From IMG/VR virus record IMGVR_UViG_2579778554_000010: 49,778 nt of DNA. One strand, written 5' to 3'. The notes below the pieces were generated by a model. That model did no database searches and was not told the DNA's origin. It was given only the letters and a program-made list of their open reading frames with translations. This document shows positions 5,201 through 29,937 of this stretch, piece by piece. This DNA is from a virus (Duplodnaviria > Heunggongvirae > Uroviricota > Caudoviricetes). The position numbers were made by a program, and so were the translations under genes. Position 1 is the first letter of the stretch, and the number at the start of each line of letters is the position of its first letter.

Positions 5201-5498
5201 TGCTTTTTGTTGCAAAGTAATTTTCAAGGGGTTCTATTCGAATCCCTTTCGTTTTCATTAACAAGCCAAACCCCTTATCAATGATGTCCATTAGATCCAG
5301 GAAGTATTTTTCATGTAAATCCTGGTTATCAGAGAGCAGCTTCTCTTCGTACAGACCGATAAAGGCACGACGCACGTTACCGGATATAGTATCGATGGTT
5401 TCTTTTTCTACGGTACTCAGGTCAAGAGTCGCCAGTTGGGAACGAACTATATTCGCTGCCATTTCCTGGAATGGCATTGGTAAATCTTTAAATTCCAT
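5178..5498 (-). CDS. Hypothetical protein, 106 aa
   Basis: ATG immediately after the ydfC-like stop with a GAGG RBS; AT-rich; 3' end overlaps the convergent 4925..5200 ORF. Confidence 0.5.
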   Translation of the reverse strand: MEFKDLPMPFQEMAANIVRSQLATLDLSTVEKETIDTISGNVRRAFIGLYEEKLLSDNQDLHEKYFLDLMDIIDKGFGLLMKTKGIRIEPLENYFATKSINSFDSK

Positions 5499-5500
5499 TA

Positions 5501-5740
5501 TTAGCCTCGTTGGTTAGCTATTAACGTGGGTATGTAACCATTCTGGCAATGCTTAATGCCGCTGCTTTTTTCCAGCCTGGTGATATCCTGCTCCAGAGCG
5601 GACAGATTTTCAGCCTGCTTAGTCCTGGCTTCATTGGCCCATTTCAGATCCTGCACTGCATTAATTTTCTGGCGCATCCACTCATAAAGTTCATCATCGG
5701 TATAGTCTGGCGCGATGATGACGGGTTCTCGTTTCTGCAT
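5501..5740 (-). CDS. ydfC: YdfC-like protein
   Basis: N-terminus MQKREPVIIAPDYTDDELYEWMRQKINA... matches recalled Qin YdfC. Confidence 0.7.
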   Translation of the reverse strand: MQKREPVIIAPDYTDDELYEWMRQKINAVQDLKWANEARTKQAENLSALEQDITRLEKSSGIKHCQNGYIPTLIANQRG

Positions 5741-5769
5741 ACTGATTCCTCGCGGTGCTGTTTCGCTTA

Positions 5770-5898
5770 TCAGCCGTTAGATTTTCCCGAACTGGAAAGC
5801 GCCTGTTTAAATTCACTGAAGCTGAGAGCTTCTTCGCCTTCGGCAAGACCATCGAAGTATTCTTCGTAAGCCTTTTCCATGATTGTGTCGAAATCCAT
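5770..5898 (-). CDS. ydfB: YdfB-like small protein, 42 aa
   Basis: Hand translation MDFDTIMEKAYEEYFDGLAEGEEALSFSEFKQALSSSGKSNG; below the size cut-off of the ORF track; lies between the ydfA-like and ydfC-like genes as in Qin. Confidence 0.6.
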   Translation of the reverse strand: MDFDTIMEKAYEEYFDGLAEGEEALSFSEFKQALSSSGKSNG

Positions 5899-5899
5899 A

Positions 5900-6055
5900 T
5901 CACTCACCTGAGTTTCTTTCCAGCCAGCGACGGGCACCATTTTCGGTTTTAAACGTTTTGCTTTTGGTATACGTCATCGCGGTGAATGTGCCGTCCTGGT
6001 TGGGAAACACGCCGTACACCAGAGATTCGTTGTTGCCAAGCTCGATAGTATCCAT
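5900..6055 (-). CDS. ydfA: YdfA-like small protein, 51 aa
   Basis: Hand translation MDTIELGNNESLVYGVFPNQDGTFTAMTYTKSKTFKTENGARRWLERNSGE; first gene downstream of the repressor gene, as in Qin. Confidence 0.6.
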   Translation of the reverse strand: MDTIELGNNESLVYGVFPNQDGTFTAMTYTKSKTFKTENGARRWLERNSGE

Positions 6056-6346
6056 GCTGACCTCATTTCCCCTTAACGCCGGGTGGCGGAACTAAAACCT
6101 GCTGCATAGTTATTAAAGTTGAACCCTGCCGTCATGTTCTTACGCCTCGGGCTGGCTACTTAACCCCTGACCACTGCCTGGTAACTCGAAGTATTGCCCT
6201 GCATTCTGTAGGATGGGGTGAGGGAATGAATGAAGTTTAGAAAAACGAACTTTTCAGGTCAATGTTTTTTTATCAAAACATTTTAAGCAGGCAGCTGTTA
6301 AGCCATCACCACGATGGCATACAGTTAATCAAATAGATGAGGTTGG

Positions 6347-6985
6347 TTAAATATCTTGTTGAATTTTAAAGCATACGCCCAATATGCAAGATAGATCATC
6401 CAGCATAATTGAAGGGTAGCGAGGATTCGTGGGGACTAAAAGAATATCCGGCCCTTCTATCTCCAGTTTACGAATGACAGGTGTTGTGGTCCCTTTGGGT
6501 AAGGCAAGGACAATATTTCCTGGTTGTACGGTTCGATCGGGATCAACAAAAACTGTTGAACCATTTGGGATGGAAACTCCCCCACCAGATGTTGACATAC
6601 TGTCACTCTCTAGAACAACTGCAAAGGTATTGACCGGGATTTCTCCGACAAGCTGCACACAAGAGGTTATTGAGGAATTTTTCATATAATCACTCCAGCT
6701 TGCTGCCTGCTGAAGTGATAGTAGCGGAACCGTTTTTATCGGCGGTAAAGATAGATCAAGCGAATCACCTGTATTTAACTCTCCTCCATTAAGAAGCCAA
6801 TTTTCGTTTACTTTCAATATTTTTGCCAGTGAACTTATGTAACGCGAGGACGGCGCTCCTCCACCGTTCATCCATTGACTTACGGAGCCTTTTGATGCGC
6901 CAGTGCCATTGACAAGGTCTTTGCCTTTCAGGTTTAGCGCATGCATACGTTGGGTTATGCGTTCAGATATAGTTTGCTTGCTCAT
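6347..6985 (-). CDS. CI-type prophage repressor (N-terminal HTH, C-terminal S24 LexA-like autopeptidase domain)
   Basis: 212 aa; HTH-like N-terminus (GTGASKGSVSQWMNGGGAPSS); long C-terminal domain; divergent from a cro-like gene across an AT-rich intergenic region. Occupies the dicA position but is longer than K-12 DicA. Confidence 0.75.
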   Translation of the reverse strand: MSKQTISERITQRMHALNLKGKDLVNGTGASKGSVSQWMNGGGAPSSRYISSLAKILKVNENWLLNGGELNTGDSLDLSLPPIKTVPLLSLQQAASWSDYMKNSSITSCVQLVGEIPVNTFAVVLESDSMSTSGGGVSIPNGSTVFVDPDRTVQPGNIVLALPKGTTTPVIRKLEIEGPDILLVPTNPRYPSIMLDDLSCILGVCFKIQQDI

Positions 6986-7076
6986 GTTTTGATTTTAAAA
7001 CACAGATGGTTTTGTTTCTTGACTTTCTTTGGTTTTGATTATTAAACTTTTGACGTTCAGTTTTATGGAGCGACTC
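6986..7076. promoter_or_regulatory. Divergent immunity control region (candidate operators and promoters)
   Basis: AT-rich 91 bp between the repressor and cro-like genes, with two related 17-mers: GTTTTGATTTTAAAACA and GTTTTGATTATTAAACT. Confidence 0.45.
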
Positions 7077-7319
7077 ATGAAAAAATCAGAAGTATTAGGC
7101 TATTTTGGCGGAGTTGTTAAAACAGCCGCAGCTCTAGGAACGTCAAAAACCACAGTCAGCATGTGGGGGGAAGAGGTTCCGTGGAAATGGGCGTTGCTAA
7201 TTCAGGCAGTCACTGCCGGGGCGCTCAAATATGAGTTACACATACCGACGGTTGTCATTCCCGGTTCTGATCATAATCCGCCTTCTAACCAAGGGGGGAT
7301 TCATGAAAATCAGGCATGA
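7077..7319 (+). CDS. Cro-like small HTH regulator (DicC/YdaS position)
   Basis: 80 aa, first gene of the rightward operon opposite the repressor; start could instead be the upstream ATG at 7065. Confidence 0.6.
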   Translation: MKKSEVLGYFGGVVKTAAALGTSKTTVSMWGEEVPWKWALLIQAVTAGALKYELHIPTVVIPGSDHNPPSNQGGIHENQA

Positions 7320-26318: not shown

Positions 26319-26852
26319 ATGAACACCAAAATCAAATACGGCCTGTCGGCTGCCGTTCTGGCGCTGATTGCCGCTGGTGCGCCTGCGCCTGACATTCTCG
26401 ACCAGTTTCTGGATGAAAAGGAAGGCAACCACACCACGGCATACCGTGATGGTGCAGGTATCTGGACCATCTGCCGTGGTGCCATCATGGTGGATGGCAA
26501 ACCTGTCGTTCCGGGCATGAAGTTGTCGAAGGAAAAATGCGACCAGGTTAACGCCATTGAGCGTGATAAAGCGCTGGCGTGGGTGGAGAAAAACATCAGA
26601 GTGCCGCTGACCGAACCCCAGAAAGCGGGGATCGCGTCATTCTGTCCGTACAACATTGGTCCCGGTAAGTGTTTCCCGTCGACGTTTTACAGACGAATTA
26701 ATGCTGGTGATCGAAAAGGTGCCTGCGAAGCGATTCGCTGGTGGATTAAGGACGGTGGCAGAGACTGCCGTATTCGTTCAAACAACTGTTACGGTCAGGT
26801 ATCCCGTCGTGACCAGGAGAGCGCGCTGGCGTGCTGGGGTATCGACAGATAA
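26319..26852 (+). CDS. R: SAR-endolysin (lysozyme, R21-like)
   Basis: N-terminal signal-anchor-release segment (LSAAVLALIAAGA) and lysozyme-like body similar to phage 21 R. Confidence 0.8.
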   Translation: MNTKIKYGLSAAVLALIAAGAPAPDILDQFLDEKEGNHTTAYRDGAGIWTICRGAIMVDGKPVVPGMKLSKEKCDQVNAIERDKALAWVEKNIRVPLTEPQKAGIASFCPYNIGPGKCFPSTFYRRINAGDRKGACEAIRWWIKDGGRDCRIRSNNCYGQVSRRDQESALACWGIDR

Positions 26853-27333: not shown

Positions 27334-27807
27334 GTGAACATAAACCGAATGCTTTCCGCGTTTATCGTTATTCTGCTGGTGGCCTGTGGTGCGCTGTGGA
27401 TGGCAACAGACCATTACCGTGATAACGCGATTACCTACAAAGCGCAGCGCGATAACAAAGCCAGTGAACTGAAGCTGGCGAACGCAACCATTACTGATAT
27501 GCAGGTGCGCCAGCGCGATGTTGCTGCGCTCGATGCAAAATACTCGAGGGAATTAGCCGATGCGAGAGCTGAAAATGAAACTCTTCGCGCTGACGTTGCC
27601 GCTGGTCGTAAGCGCCTGCGGATCAACGCCACCTGTCCAGGCTCCGTGCGTGAAGCCCCCACCACCTCCGGCGTGGATAATGCAACCGGCCCCCAACTGG
27701 CAGACACCGTTACACGGGATTATTTCACCCTCAGAGAGCGGCTGATGACGATGCACAAGCAACTGGAAGGGGCACAGGACTATATCCGCACTCAGTGCCT
27801 GAAATAA
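27334..27807 (+). CDS. Rz: Spanin inner-membrane subunit Rz
   Basis: Strong similarity to lambda Rz ([15 protein letters not shown]...[18 protein letters not shown]). Confidence 0.9.
27575..27745 (+). CDS. Rz1: Spanin outer-membrane lipoprotein Rz1 (embedded in Rz, +1 frame)
   Basis: [15 protein letters not shown] lipobox followed by a proline-rich segment, nested in Rz as in lambda. Confidence 0.8.
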
Positions 27808-28117
27808 GTTTTGTTGATGCGCCGTATCGTCGCTATATTCCCTCATTAACAGAGACCGCAGCCCGACAGGGAGACTCCTCTGCGCGAGTGTGCGGGGATA
27901 ATTAAAAACGATGCACACCGGGTTTTTACCGCGTTAATGATTCGCGGGTTTATCCCGGTGCGATGGTGGAAGAAACAGGAAGCTGTATTACAGAAAGTGC
28001 TACTACTGTATCCCGATGCGATGTATGTAATGTGAGTCAGATAATGGCACAGGATGTGGTGATGTGGCAGTCTGGAACACAGGATATATTGTCAGAATAA
28101 GACCCGTAGGAATAAAA

Positions 28118-28444
28118 ATGAAAAGACGCCTTTTACTACTTTTTCTGTTATCTGTCCTGGCAGTGGGATGCTCGCAGCAAAAAGCTGATGAGCCCCGGCA
28201 ATTAGTGACGGTGTATCCACGATATCCGGAATATGCTGCAGCAAATTATATCAAGGGGCTGGTTGAGGTTAAGTTCGATATTGGTGCTGATGGGACTGTG
28301 ACACGGATCGTTTTTCTCCGCTCAGAGCCTCATAATTTGTTTCGTGATGAAGTGGTGAAGGCCATGGCGAAATGGCGATTTGAAAAGAATCGCCCCTGTC
28401 AGGGAGTGAAGAGACAATTTATCTTTACGCCGTCACGTCCTTGA
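28118..28444 (+). CDS. Lipoprotein with TonB C-terminal-domain-like fold, 108 aa
   Basis: Signal peptide plus lipobox (LSVLAVGCSQQ), then YPRYPEYAAANYIKGLVEVKFDIGADGTVTRIVFLRSEPHNLFRDEVVKAMAKWRF, which fits the TonB_C pattern. Confidence 0.55.
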   Translation: MKRRLLLLFLLSVLAVGCSQQKADEPRQLVTVYPRYPEYAAANYIKGLVEVKFDIGADGTVTRIVFLRSEPHNLFRDEVVKAMAKWRFEKNRPCQGVKRQFIFTPSRP

Positions 28445-28807
28445 TGCTTCCAGGTAGAGAGGGGCTGGACGCAGGAGAAAAATGAAAGAGCCAGCGGTTA
28501 TATTTTTGTCATGGCTGACGAGGAATGATGGAAGAAGGCGTTGTATGCCACACAACGCCTCACTGTTCATTTCTTCTTTTTCTCTGGTGGAACCCGATGA
28601 ATAAGAGTTGCACTGGTTTCCGATGAGATGGCGATATACTCGGGCAAAGTATGCTGGCAGTTTTCCAACTGGTCAAAAATACCTGCTCTCGTCTGTTGCA
28701 ATGCCTGCAGCATGCGGCGGCAATGCGCCTTGCTTTTACTAACCATCTTTCCTTCCTCTATCAGTCGCTGCGTGAACTCATCATGTAATACCAGGTAAAT
28801 GCGGATG

Positions 28808-29388: not shown

Positions 29389-29937
29389 ATGAACGTCAAT
29401 AAGAAAAAACTGGCCGATATTTTTGGCGTTGATGTCAGGACCATCACCGCCTGGCAGAGTCAGGGGTTACCACTAGTTTCTGGTGGAGGGAAAGGGACTG
29501 AATCAGTTTTTGATACAACTGCTGCCATTCAGTGGTATGCGCAGAGGGAAGCTGATATTAAAAACGAAAAACTCCGTAAAGAGATCGAGGATTTGAGGGC
29601 TGCCAGCGAATCAGACCTTCAGCCCGGCACCATTGATTACGAACGTTACCGACTGACGAAGGCACAGGCCGATGCACAGGAGCTGAAAAATGCTCGTGAG
29701 GAAGGCCTTGTCCTCGAGACGGAGTTATTTACCTACATCTTTCAGCGAGTGGCACAGAATATATCAGGGATCCTTGTCCGTGTCCCTCAGACACTGCAGC
29801 GTAAATACCCTGATATATCACCCGTACATCTTGATGCTGTGAAAACTGAAATCGCGAAAGCATCCGATGTGGCTTCTGAAGCCGGTGAGAATGTGCGCAG
29901 GTGGATTGATGATTTCAGACGAACTGAGGGCGGCTAA
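29389..29937 (+). CDS. nu1: Terminase small subunit
   Basis: [28 protein letters not shown]... strongly resembles lambda Nu1. Confidence 0.95.

Follow-up and report, generated by a model that had tools for sequence, protein, structure and literature searches.

Llp of phage T5 and Cor of phages phi80, N15 and HK022 are small phage lipoproteins that sit in the inner leaflet of the outer membrane and target FhuA from its periplasmic side, and the Llp fold has many Foldseek matches among small phage proteins in BFVD, a collection of predicted viral structures (preprint). Bor/Iss, also a lipoprotein, and Lom are likewise small envelope proteins of lysogenic conversion, encoded in the accessory slots of lambdoid prophages and expressed from them. 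Here we analyzed a gene for a 108-residue lipoprotein with a TonB C-terminal domain (CTD), found next to the lysis genes in a 49,778-nucleotide stretch of Caudoviricetes DNA (IMG/VR record IMGVR_UViG_2579778554_000010). The whole stretch is called the window and the gene the TonB_C lipoprotein gene.

The TonB box of a transporter pairs parallel to strand 226-231 of Escherichia coli TonB, with Val10 beside Phe230. In free E. coli TonB (1XX3) an extra strand (residues 235-239) covers this pairing edge and must be exchanged, and the highly conserved Arg166 is the proposed disruptor of the FhuA plug through Glu56 (PMC6118199). Suppressors of TonB-box mutations map to the Q160 region, with FhuA and colicin M alike (PMC6118199, PMC11658791), and colicin M requires its own TonB box for TonB binding. 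As reviewed in PMC9841981, iron import through TonB is inhibited when the periplasmic TonB domain is overproduced (Howard et al. 2001), and with TonB-box pentapeptides colicins kill less and phi80 infects less (Tuckman 1992); TonB proteolytic fragments act as competitive inhibitors when present in excess.

When compared to the CTD of E. coli TonB (residues 150-239; structures 1U07, 1XX3, 2GSK and 2GRX), the window protein has the same element order, core residues, pairing strand and basic charge. True TonB, however, has an inner-membrane anchor, a proline-rich spacer and ExbB/ExbD coupling, all three of which are absent from the phage lipoprotein, and the predicted lipid anchor of the latter is in the opposite membrane. 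Counterparts of TonB residues 233-239, including the occluding strand 235-239, are also missing, Tyr takes the place of Arg166, further conserved basic residues have gone, and the protein falls in a separate clade. The TonB equivalog models scored 45-69 bits (cut-offs 265-448), and only their C-terminal 75-85 positions were matched. The families NF047760 (LIC_10042 TonB-like) and NF033768 (AgmX/PglI C-terminal) are also short, with a TonB_C fold and without TonB architecture; they come from different phyla and scored 24-25 bits against cut-offs of 40-100. NCBIfam held no curated model for the enterobacterial lipoprotein clade. The laboratory periplasmic TonB fragments (Howard et al. 2001), also energy-uncoupled periplasmic TonB CTDs, are closest in proposed working principle; in contrast to them, the prophage protein is natural and selected, has a predicted lipid anchor at the outer membrane and is modestly and constitutively expressed, and it is 41% identical to TonB with an altered surface.

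The original prediction had drawn a parallel with Cor. The parallel stands for the proposed function, in which the site of action and the purpose would be alike, and fails for the fold and for the genomic slot. The fold and family of Cor/Llp are unrelated to those of the window protein: all its significant PDB matches are TonB or TolA-type domains, and a search of BFVD gave no match at E<=0.001. The TonB_C gene lies after Rz, whereas the Cor and Llp genes lie after J or in the early region, and the lipoprotein is predicted to target TonB boxes in general and not FhuA specifically. Bor/Iss and Lom are unrelated proteins as well; bor is on the opposite strand and is induced in Dulbecco's modified Eagle medium (DMEM) and in macrophages. 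By membership, the product is a TonB_C-domain protein, and it is neither TonB, a Cor/Llp family member nor a spanin. The gene had been annotated, and recorded as a moron, before this analysis, hence the feature itself is not new; what is new, taken together, is the predicted lipid-anchored architecture of a distinct clade, the TonB residue pattern, the fixed phage slot and the decoy hypothesis developed below.

Gene, lipoprotein signal and predicted fold

The 108-residue open reading frame (ORF) reported by the original prediction was confirmed at its exact position by the ORF list and the sequence: it is on the plus strand, begins with ATG at 28118 and has its stop within the range (Table 1). 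The start and stop agree between the window, RefSeq and the phage 21 record. At the position of the ribosome-binding site (RBS), GGGA/AGGA is kept in the second E. coli allele (72% amino-acid identity), and the same RBS is annotated in phage 21. A longer form starting with GTG at 28064 also exists; ATG 28118 is the start that goes with the RBS and that is taken by both the RefSeq model and the curated annotation of phage 21. The phage (prophage) origin and the place downstream of Rz, which had also been claimed, were borne out, with the gene 310 bp past a complete Rz/Rz1 pair.

The N-terminus has the features of a lipoprotein signal: an MKRR n-region, then LLLLFLLSVLAVG with the hydrophobic core and, before C18, the lipobox LAVG, which fits the PROSITE-type pattern; residue +2 is Ser, not Asp. 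The signal peptide and lipobox (MKRRLLLLFLLSVLAVG-C18) are as first described. By the +2 rule, Ser at this position implies Lol sorting to the outer membrane, and the TonB_C lipoprotein is predicted to reside there. Among 22 clade members the strict lipobox pattern was found in 20 and a near-match in the other 2, and none had Asp at +2. The lipobox is retained in homologues of only 40% identity, and the signal peptide is kept down to ∼35% identity; the homologue of a Klebsiella phage (41% identity) begins with the lipoprotein signal MKKGFIGTIFLCGMLLG-C-S. The mature clade proteins are basic (pI 8.1-9.9), as is the TonB CTD.

The resemblance to a TonB CTD, as originally noted, is well beyond chance. 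Pfam PF03544 matched residues 33-99 (E=7.3e-13, 49.2 bits vs. a cut-off of 24.6), TIGR01352 matched with E=1.8e-12 (47.4 bits vs. 27.1), and phmmer against the PDB aligned residues 23-103 onto TonB 150-230 with E ∼1e-14, the best solved relatives being chains of the E. coli TonB CTD, including co-crystals with BtuB and FhuA. In a BLASTP comparison with E. coli TonB, the proteins were 41% identical, ungapped, over 81 residues (TonB 150-230); the TonB query was confirmed by an identical alignment to PDB chain 1u07.

The order of elements in the domain is alpha1, beta, beta, alpha2 and the TonB-box-pairing strand. An AlphaFold2 (AF2) run from the single sequence gave a poor model (predicted local distance difference test, pLDDT, of 51) and was replaced by a run with a 28-sequence alignment, which gave a mean pLDDT of 87 and values >95 across residues 25-105. 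The model has a short strand followed by helix 38-42, strands 47-55 and 61-70, helix 76-83 and strand 94-103. The original prediction had proposed comparing such a model with TonB CTDs, and these ranked first in a Foldseek search of the PDB: the top matches were the TonB CTDs 1u07, 2gsk (with BtuB), 1xx3 and 2grx (with FhuA), with target-normalised template-modelling scores of 0.86-0.93 (0.90-0.93 for 1u07, 2gsk and 2grx) and root-mean-square deviations of 0.7-1.2 Å, a match partly expected from homology because TonB sequences were present in the AF2 alignment. The lack of structural similarity to TonB_C that the original prediction had named as a ground for refutation was therefore not observed. 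TolA domain III appeared in this search only with non-significant E-values.

The mature domain has an additional cysteine, Cys94 (codon 28397-28399; NRPC94QG), in the loop before the last strand. It is present in both E. coli alleles, and elsewhere in the clade the position is occupied by Tyr, Ser, Thr or Val. An unpaired periplasmic Cys94 could form a disulfide with a partner or a dimer.

Selection, distribution and transcription in the lysogen

The window protein is 100% identical (tblastn) to the products of genes in phage 21, ev017, Perceval and several PhiR phages. It is annotated as "TonB C-terminal domain protein" in coliphage 21 (CPT_21_73), as "TonB fragment" in the LF82 prophage Perceval (LF82_160) and as "TonB family protein" in RefSeq (WP_000830178.1), the last in E. 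coli SCU-204, the genome that best matches the window and whose prophage adjoins potB. The annotation as a TonB C-terminal domain protein thus already exists in phage 21, CP-933N and RefSeq, and the naming in all sources stops at "TonB family protein" or similar. Searching the full text of the literature, we found no paper that gives this protein a function.

When the 327 bp of the gene were searched with blastn, it was found in 1617 of 5426 complete E. coli genomes (∼30%). It was intact (coverage >=80%) in 1612 of the 1617. A total of 1202 carriers had it with at least 99% identity, and 392 had a second allele (∼73% nucleotide and 72% amino-acid identity) that is typical of Stx1a phages and of O157/O55 prophages. 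The gene is common among extraintestinal pathogenic (ExPEC) and adherent-invasive (AIEC) E. coli strains, e.g., UTI89, ATCC 25922 and LF82.

Between the two E. coli alleles (window vs. JLK-2012), the non-synonymous and synonymous divergence was dN=0.18 and dS=1.50 (dN/dS=0.12; Nei-Gojobori method, NG86), and the signal peptide and the domain, taken separately, had similarly low dN/dS. This is a real gene under purifying selection. The substitutions cluster at residues 31-38, 73-78 and 99-100, which correspond in TonB to the Q160 region and to where helix 2 and the pairing strand begin, and residues 51-64 and 79-90 are identical.

A HMMER search of 1.84 billion representatives gave 2795 matches at E<=0.001. 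Among the best 150 of these 2795 there were many proteins of 107-135 residues that matched from residue 1 and had a lipobox (P0037, P0039, P0040, P0041, P0042, P0050, P0071, P0089, P0117 and P0129); a plain signal peptide was found in P0059, P0085, P0097 and P0159. In a neighbour-joining tree of the domain, which is indicative only because it has no bootstrap and 78 columns, the phage proteins fell inside a clade of small Enterobacterales lipoproteins, apart from the CTDs of true TonB. P0139 (152 residues) has the lipobox LALAG-C-S, a longer linker and a domain 63% identical to that of E. coli TonB (SAQPANIFEREV...), and it grouped with the true TonB CTDs, outside the small-lipoprotein clade. 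This suggests more than one origin for the combination of a TonB CTD with a lipoprotein signal.

Published RNA sequencing of AIEC strain LF82 covers the identical gene of Perceval. LF82_160 was transcribed 8-fold above the prophage background (Misson et al., PMC9928086). Its log2 values were 5.0-6.6 in all ten samples, when compared to 2.3-3.7 for the adjacent Rz gene and 2.3-4.3 for the small terminase gene (PMC9928086). In MB6 vs. BLB it showed no significant change (log2 fold change 0.26), whereas the neighbouring bor rose by log2 7.1, and it did not change across the lysogeny broth (LB), DMEM and macrophage samples, in which bor was strongly induced in DMEM and macrophages (PMC9928086). 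Expression in a lysogen (LF82) is thus autonomous and more or less constitutive. Its transcription there is independent of the lytic genes, which is the mark of a moron (PMC9928086), and the gene is a lysogen-expressed accessory gene of lambdoid prophages. Transcription apart from the late genes fits a role in lysogenic conversion.

Since the identical Perceval gene is transcribed, the promoter must lie in the shared interval 27818-28117. The proximal upstream region has diverged between the alleles except for two blocks, one of which, TGT(C/T)AGAAT, is the candidate extended -10 element of Table 1; it may be the exact promoter element. A promoter scan called the JLK-2012 equivalent (ATGACC-16-TAGAAT with TG), and the window site was below the scan threshold. 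The consensus scan of the window found no plus-strand sigma-70 site upstream and no plus-strand terminator before 28915. Regulation by Fur was rejected, because the best upstream Fur-box match (11/19) was at background level.

A strong promoter-like site in antisense orientation lies inside the TonB_C coding sequence (28272-28245, minus strand; TTAACC-16-TATAAT with TG, 10/12). The JLK-2012 allele has one at the same gene-relative position (L003 3655-3628, minus strand; TTCACA-16-TATAAT, 11/12). The site is directed towards Rz, or towards bor where bor exists, and may be a simple by-product of the conserved N-Y-I-K-G codons.

A putative TonB-box decoy and the competing explanations

The gene, its domain, fold and lipobox, purifying selection, the conserved slot (see below) and transcription in the lysogen are established; from these we infer an outer-membrane location, TonB-box binding, inhibition and a protective phenotype. 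Our preferred reading, which we hold tentatively and with less than even confidence, is that the protein is an outer-membrane-tethered, energy-less TonB mimic that would dampen TonB-dependent import of phages, colicins and microcins. A linker of ∼10-15 residues would hold a monomeric TonB-type CTD against the periplasmic face of the membrane, where the edge strand (residues 99-104, equivalent to TonB 226-231) would capture the TonB boxes of transporters by beta-strand addition. The TonB boxes of incoming group B colicins may be captured too, or the C-terminus of TonB itself may be bound. Capture would set the lipoprotein in competition with genuine TonB, and the resulting lower import would make the lysogen less sensitive to T1/phi80-type phages, colicins, microcins and siderophore-linked antibiotics, at the cost of some siderophore and B12 uptake.

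Precedents for this mechanism are the inhibitory TonB domain and fragments, the TonB-box peptides, the need of colicin M for its own TonB box, and Llp and Cor. Several features of the domain are consistent with it. The core residues Y36, F53, G59, F75, W86, F88 and F103 correspond to TonB Y163, F180, G186, F202, W213, Y215 and F230, the model places a strand at residues 94-103, and F103 is aligned with F230. The protein ends 5 residues past the F230 equivalent, which leaves no segment that could cover the edge strand. Because an inner-membrane anchor, a proline-rich spacer and a link to ExbB/ExbD are absent, energy cannot be transmitted, and with Tyr in place of the proposed plug-disrupting Arg166 the domain would seem to be built for holding a TonB box rather than for pulling it. 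The idea put forward originally, that the product binds receptors and protects the lysogen from TonB-dependent phages and colicins, is plausible.

A series of observations weighs against an outer-membrane TonB-box decoy. (i) The position of Arg166 is Tyr in 95% of the lipoprotein clade, the residues R158, R204, K207 and R211, basic in true TonB, are not conserved, and the Q160 position is variable; with these basic surface residues lost, the partner surface may differ from that of TonB. The fold match, moreover, is partly expected from homology. (ii) TonB-dependent iron uptake contributes to the fitness of ExPEC and AIEC, and with constitutive expression in such strains, which need TonB, any inhibition must be weak, selective or compensated. 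(iii) Among 14 homologous loci in one-genome-per-species contigs (Klebsiella, Raoultella, Serratia, Erwinia, Pantoea and Pseudescherichia), a phage lysozyme gene was upstream in 1 (Serratia, with large ORFs downstream as well), and the other 13 had chromosomal neighbours (lacZ/lacI, DUF1440, alpha/beta hydrolase, ycgN/nhaB/dsbB or amyA/yedD-type); no TonB-dependent transporter was nearby and no neighbour was conserved. Chromosomal loci outside prophages mean that the family is not exclusively viral, and their ordinary neighbourhoods argue for a cellular role apart from phage exclusion. (iv) The literature search found no binding or phenotype data for the protein or any clade member, and PADLOC gave no family at E<=1 for the TonB_C lipoprotein or the two flanking small ORFs. 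(v) Self-exclusion tied to the use of FhuA was rejected: the C-terminus of the window tail-tip protein J groups with J of Stx-converting and lambda-like phages and gives no sign of it, and no cor is annotated in the matching prophage.

If the TonB-box decoy is nevertheless correct, one 108-residue lipoprotein would modulate all TonB-dependent gates of the cell together, and prophage exclusion would have a new mode that targets the shared energy-coupling step and not a single receptor, mechanistically distinct from the receptor-specific exclusion lipoproteins Cor and Llp. The cell would become less susceptible to whole classes of TonB-dependent phages, and likewise to group B colicins, to microcins and to antibiotics conjugated with siderophores, e.g., cefiderocol. 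Competition in the gut would be shaped, many colicins and microcins being TonB-dependent, the prediction of host range for phage therapy would be affected, and susceptibility to siderophore-antibiotic conjugates could be. Phage 21-type prophages would offset the iron cost through the co-carried, TonB-independent SitABCD, and the wide retention in ExPEC/AIEC prophages beside iss and sitABCD would be explained. The broader proposal that this is a natural broad-spectrum 'anti-TonB' decoy in ∼30% of E. coli and in related Klebsiella-type prophages is doubtful. If the decoy is wrong, what remains is a predicted outer-membrane lipoprotein, very common and expressed in lysogens, with a wrong label in PHROGs.

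Rather unlikely, but the best of the alternatives, is a role in the envelope or in virulence, in which the lipoprotein would turn its TonB_C fold to another partner and leave TonB-dependent transport unaffected. The ligand could be peptidoglycan, which the TonB C-terminus reportedly binds, an outer-membrane or periplasmic protein, or a host factor, and the role could be envelope robustness or fitness in the host, like that of the morons bor/iss and lom. Such a role is in keeping with the replacement of the conserved basic contact residues of TonB, the chromosomal homologues outside prophages that show no linkage to transporters, the constitutive and low to moderate expression, and the adjacency of bor/iss in phage 21, UTI89 and Perceval, with sitABCD in the same prophages. 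The features that have been kept, however, are those of TonB-box pairing (an edge strand with the F230 equivalent and no occluding strand), transcription does not respond to macrophage or DMEM conditions as that of bor does, and none of the searches suggested an alternative ligand.

We consider improbable a positive helper, in which the lipoprotein would be an outer-membrane docking factor that organises TonB boxes or TonB, e.g., as a heterodimer with the TonB C-terminus, and improves iron acquisition by the lysogen alongside SitABCD. TonB CTDs can dimerise in crystals and in solution (PMC6118199), the iron/manganese importer sitABCD is co-carried in phage 21-type ExPEC/AIEC prophages, and many carriers of the gene are pathogens with a dependence on iron uptake. 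An energy-less domain on a TonB box should, however, compete, as the overproduced periplasmic TonB domain does when it inhibits import. The sit linkage comes from one lineage (four sampled icd-site prophages and phage 21) and is absent from SCU-204, there is no upstream Fur box, and expression is flat across the LB, DMEM and macrophage samples.

Very improbable is a lysis accessory, that is, a late outer-membrane lipoprotein modulating outer-membrane disruption or the timing of lysis. In many phage backbones the gene comes directly after the spanin genes and in the same orientation, and late read-through would be expected by analogy with the organisation of the lambda late operon. In addition, the label 'Rz-like spanin' is borne by PHROG 1267, the family of the TonB_C lipoprotein, which matches over the full length with E=5e-43. 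In phage Stx2 II, however, a small ORF that follows bor and is unrelated has the same label (L099 1493-1738), and both cases look like annotation by position beside the lysis genes. The protein has no similarity to spanins in sequence or fold, the fold being TonB_C; its expression in the uninduced lysogen is well above that of the adjacent lysis genes; homologues occupy non-phage chromosomal sites; and many lambdoid phages are without the gene (the junction that borders it is in 432 phage records, the gene in 15). Identity as a spanin was rejected, being contradicted by the complete upstream Rz/Rz1 pair, the TonB_C fold, the lysogen expression and the chromosomal homologues.

A dead remnant of a captured tonB, to which the labels 'TonB fragment' and 'partial tonB-like membrane protein' (among Perceval, ev017 and CP-933N) and the coverage of only about the last third of TonB might point, can be dismissed, because this pseudogene reading is effectively refuted by the low dN/dS over 108 codons with saturated synonymous divergence and by the conserved lipobox, and is further opposed by a dedicated signal peptide kept to ∼35% identity, the lack of truncation, a clade separate from true TonB in the tree, the RBS, the transcription and the intact gene in nearly all carrier genomes.

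Genomic slot and neighbouring features

The coordinates of the gene and of its neighbours are collected in Table 1.

Table 1. Positions in the window of the TonB_C lipoprotein gene, its parts and the adjacent phage features
Feature	Position	Strand	Basis and remarks
TonB_C lipoprotein gene	28118..28444	+	ORF list, sequence; = phage 21 CPT_21_73, WP_000830178.1, LF82_160
Lipoprotein signal peptide and lipobox, MKRRLLLLFLLSVLAVG-C18	28118..28171	+	Read in sequence
TonB_C domain, residues 26-103 (= E. coli TonB 153-230)	28193..28426	+	Pfam, phmmer, AF2, Foldseek
Shine-Dalgarno AGGA	28108..28111	+	Read in sequence; spacing to ATG 6 nt
Candidate extended -10 element, TGTCAGAAT (TGTTAGAAT in second allele)	28090..28098	+	Conserved block in diverged upstream region
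Conserved lambdoid junction, left edge of gene-bearing module	27818..27926	.	Homology boundary
Rz i-spanin	27334..27807	+	ORF; lysis-protein annotation in matching genome; homology to annotated Rz
Rz1 o-spanin, embedded in Rz	27560..27745	+	ORF
Lysozyme of lysis cassette	26319-26852		ORF
Terminase small subunit	29389..29937	+	ORF; annotation in matching genome; right neighbour of accessory slot
Second terminase gene	at 29867		ORF

In every phage carrier examined, the gene is found in one and the same slot, between the lysis genes and the terminase genes that follow, all in one orientation. At least four combinations of lysis and terminase modules share this slot, in E. coli and Klebsiella-type phages; carriers include phage 21, JLK-2012 (with a different lysin and an HK97-type terminase) and the Klebsiella phage. 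The slot was also found in 37 further IMG/VR loci that form a second phage clade, with varied lysis and terminase modules, and one slot locus has two spanin sets. A viral profile scan with a 7-sequence alignment returned near-identical loci only, and a second alignment reached the Klebsiella-type clade.

When the window was compared by BLAST to 84 related loci, the left homology edge was always at ∼27800-27820, directly past the Rz stop. The adjoining junction (∼110 bp) is ∼90% conserved between alleles whose TonB_C genes are 73% identical, and the phage records that contain it include lambda and many Stx phages without the gene. It overlaps an 81-residue ORF labelled 'Rz-like spanin' in phage Stx2 II. 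A search of 27812-28000, junction and upstream region, for a structured or small RNA gave no Rfam match and a folding z-score of -1.0, no better than shuffled sequences. The junction may be a recombination junction or a remnant ORF.

The small ORFs that flank the gene, 27963-28100 and 28482-28604 (phage 21 hypotheticals CPT_21_72 and CPT_21_74), are doubtful genes. The upstream one (45 residues) was rejected as a conserved gene because it is cut to 17-21 codons in the other allele, in which its first ∼10 codons are kept.

In phage 21 (L137, OL657228 21967-24502) and UTI89 (L138 25248-28697), bor/iss is directly upstream of the TonB_C gene, and it is also a neighbour in Perceval; when compared to phage 21, the window has no bor between Rz and the TonB_C gene. 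The TonB-independent Fe/Mn importer sitABCD is co-carried by phage 21 and by the icd-site prophages of UTI89, ATCC 25922, Ecol_542 and A33 (locus labels for the phage 21-like prophages: L137 for phage 21, L138 for UTI89, then L139, L140 and L141), where it follows the side tail fibre genes. The Perceval prophage of LF82 expresses both sitABCD and the TonB_C gene as morons in the lysogen. The potB-site prophage of SCU-204, the closest genome to the window, has neither sit nor bor, hence the linkage of sit and bor to the gene may reflect one prophage lineage.

Klebsiella and Raoultella chromosomes have one or two paralogous TonB_C lipoprotein genes near lacZ/lacI (L085 and L086, ∼5427-6333; L087-L089, ∼5995-7301). 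One paralogue adjoins a gene for a glycine-zipper (Rick_17kDa_Anti) secreted protein, and the neighbour of another codes for a membrane protein with DUF1440 (YagU-like). The TonB_C-bearing Klebsiella phage, too, has a gene for a DUF1440 protein, immediately before its lysis cassette (L004 232-858).

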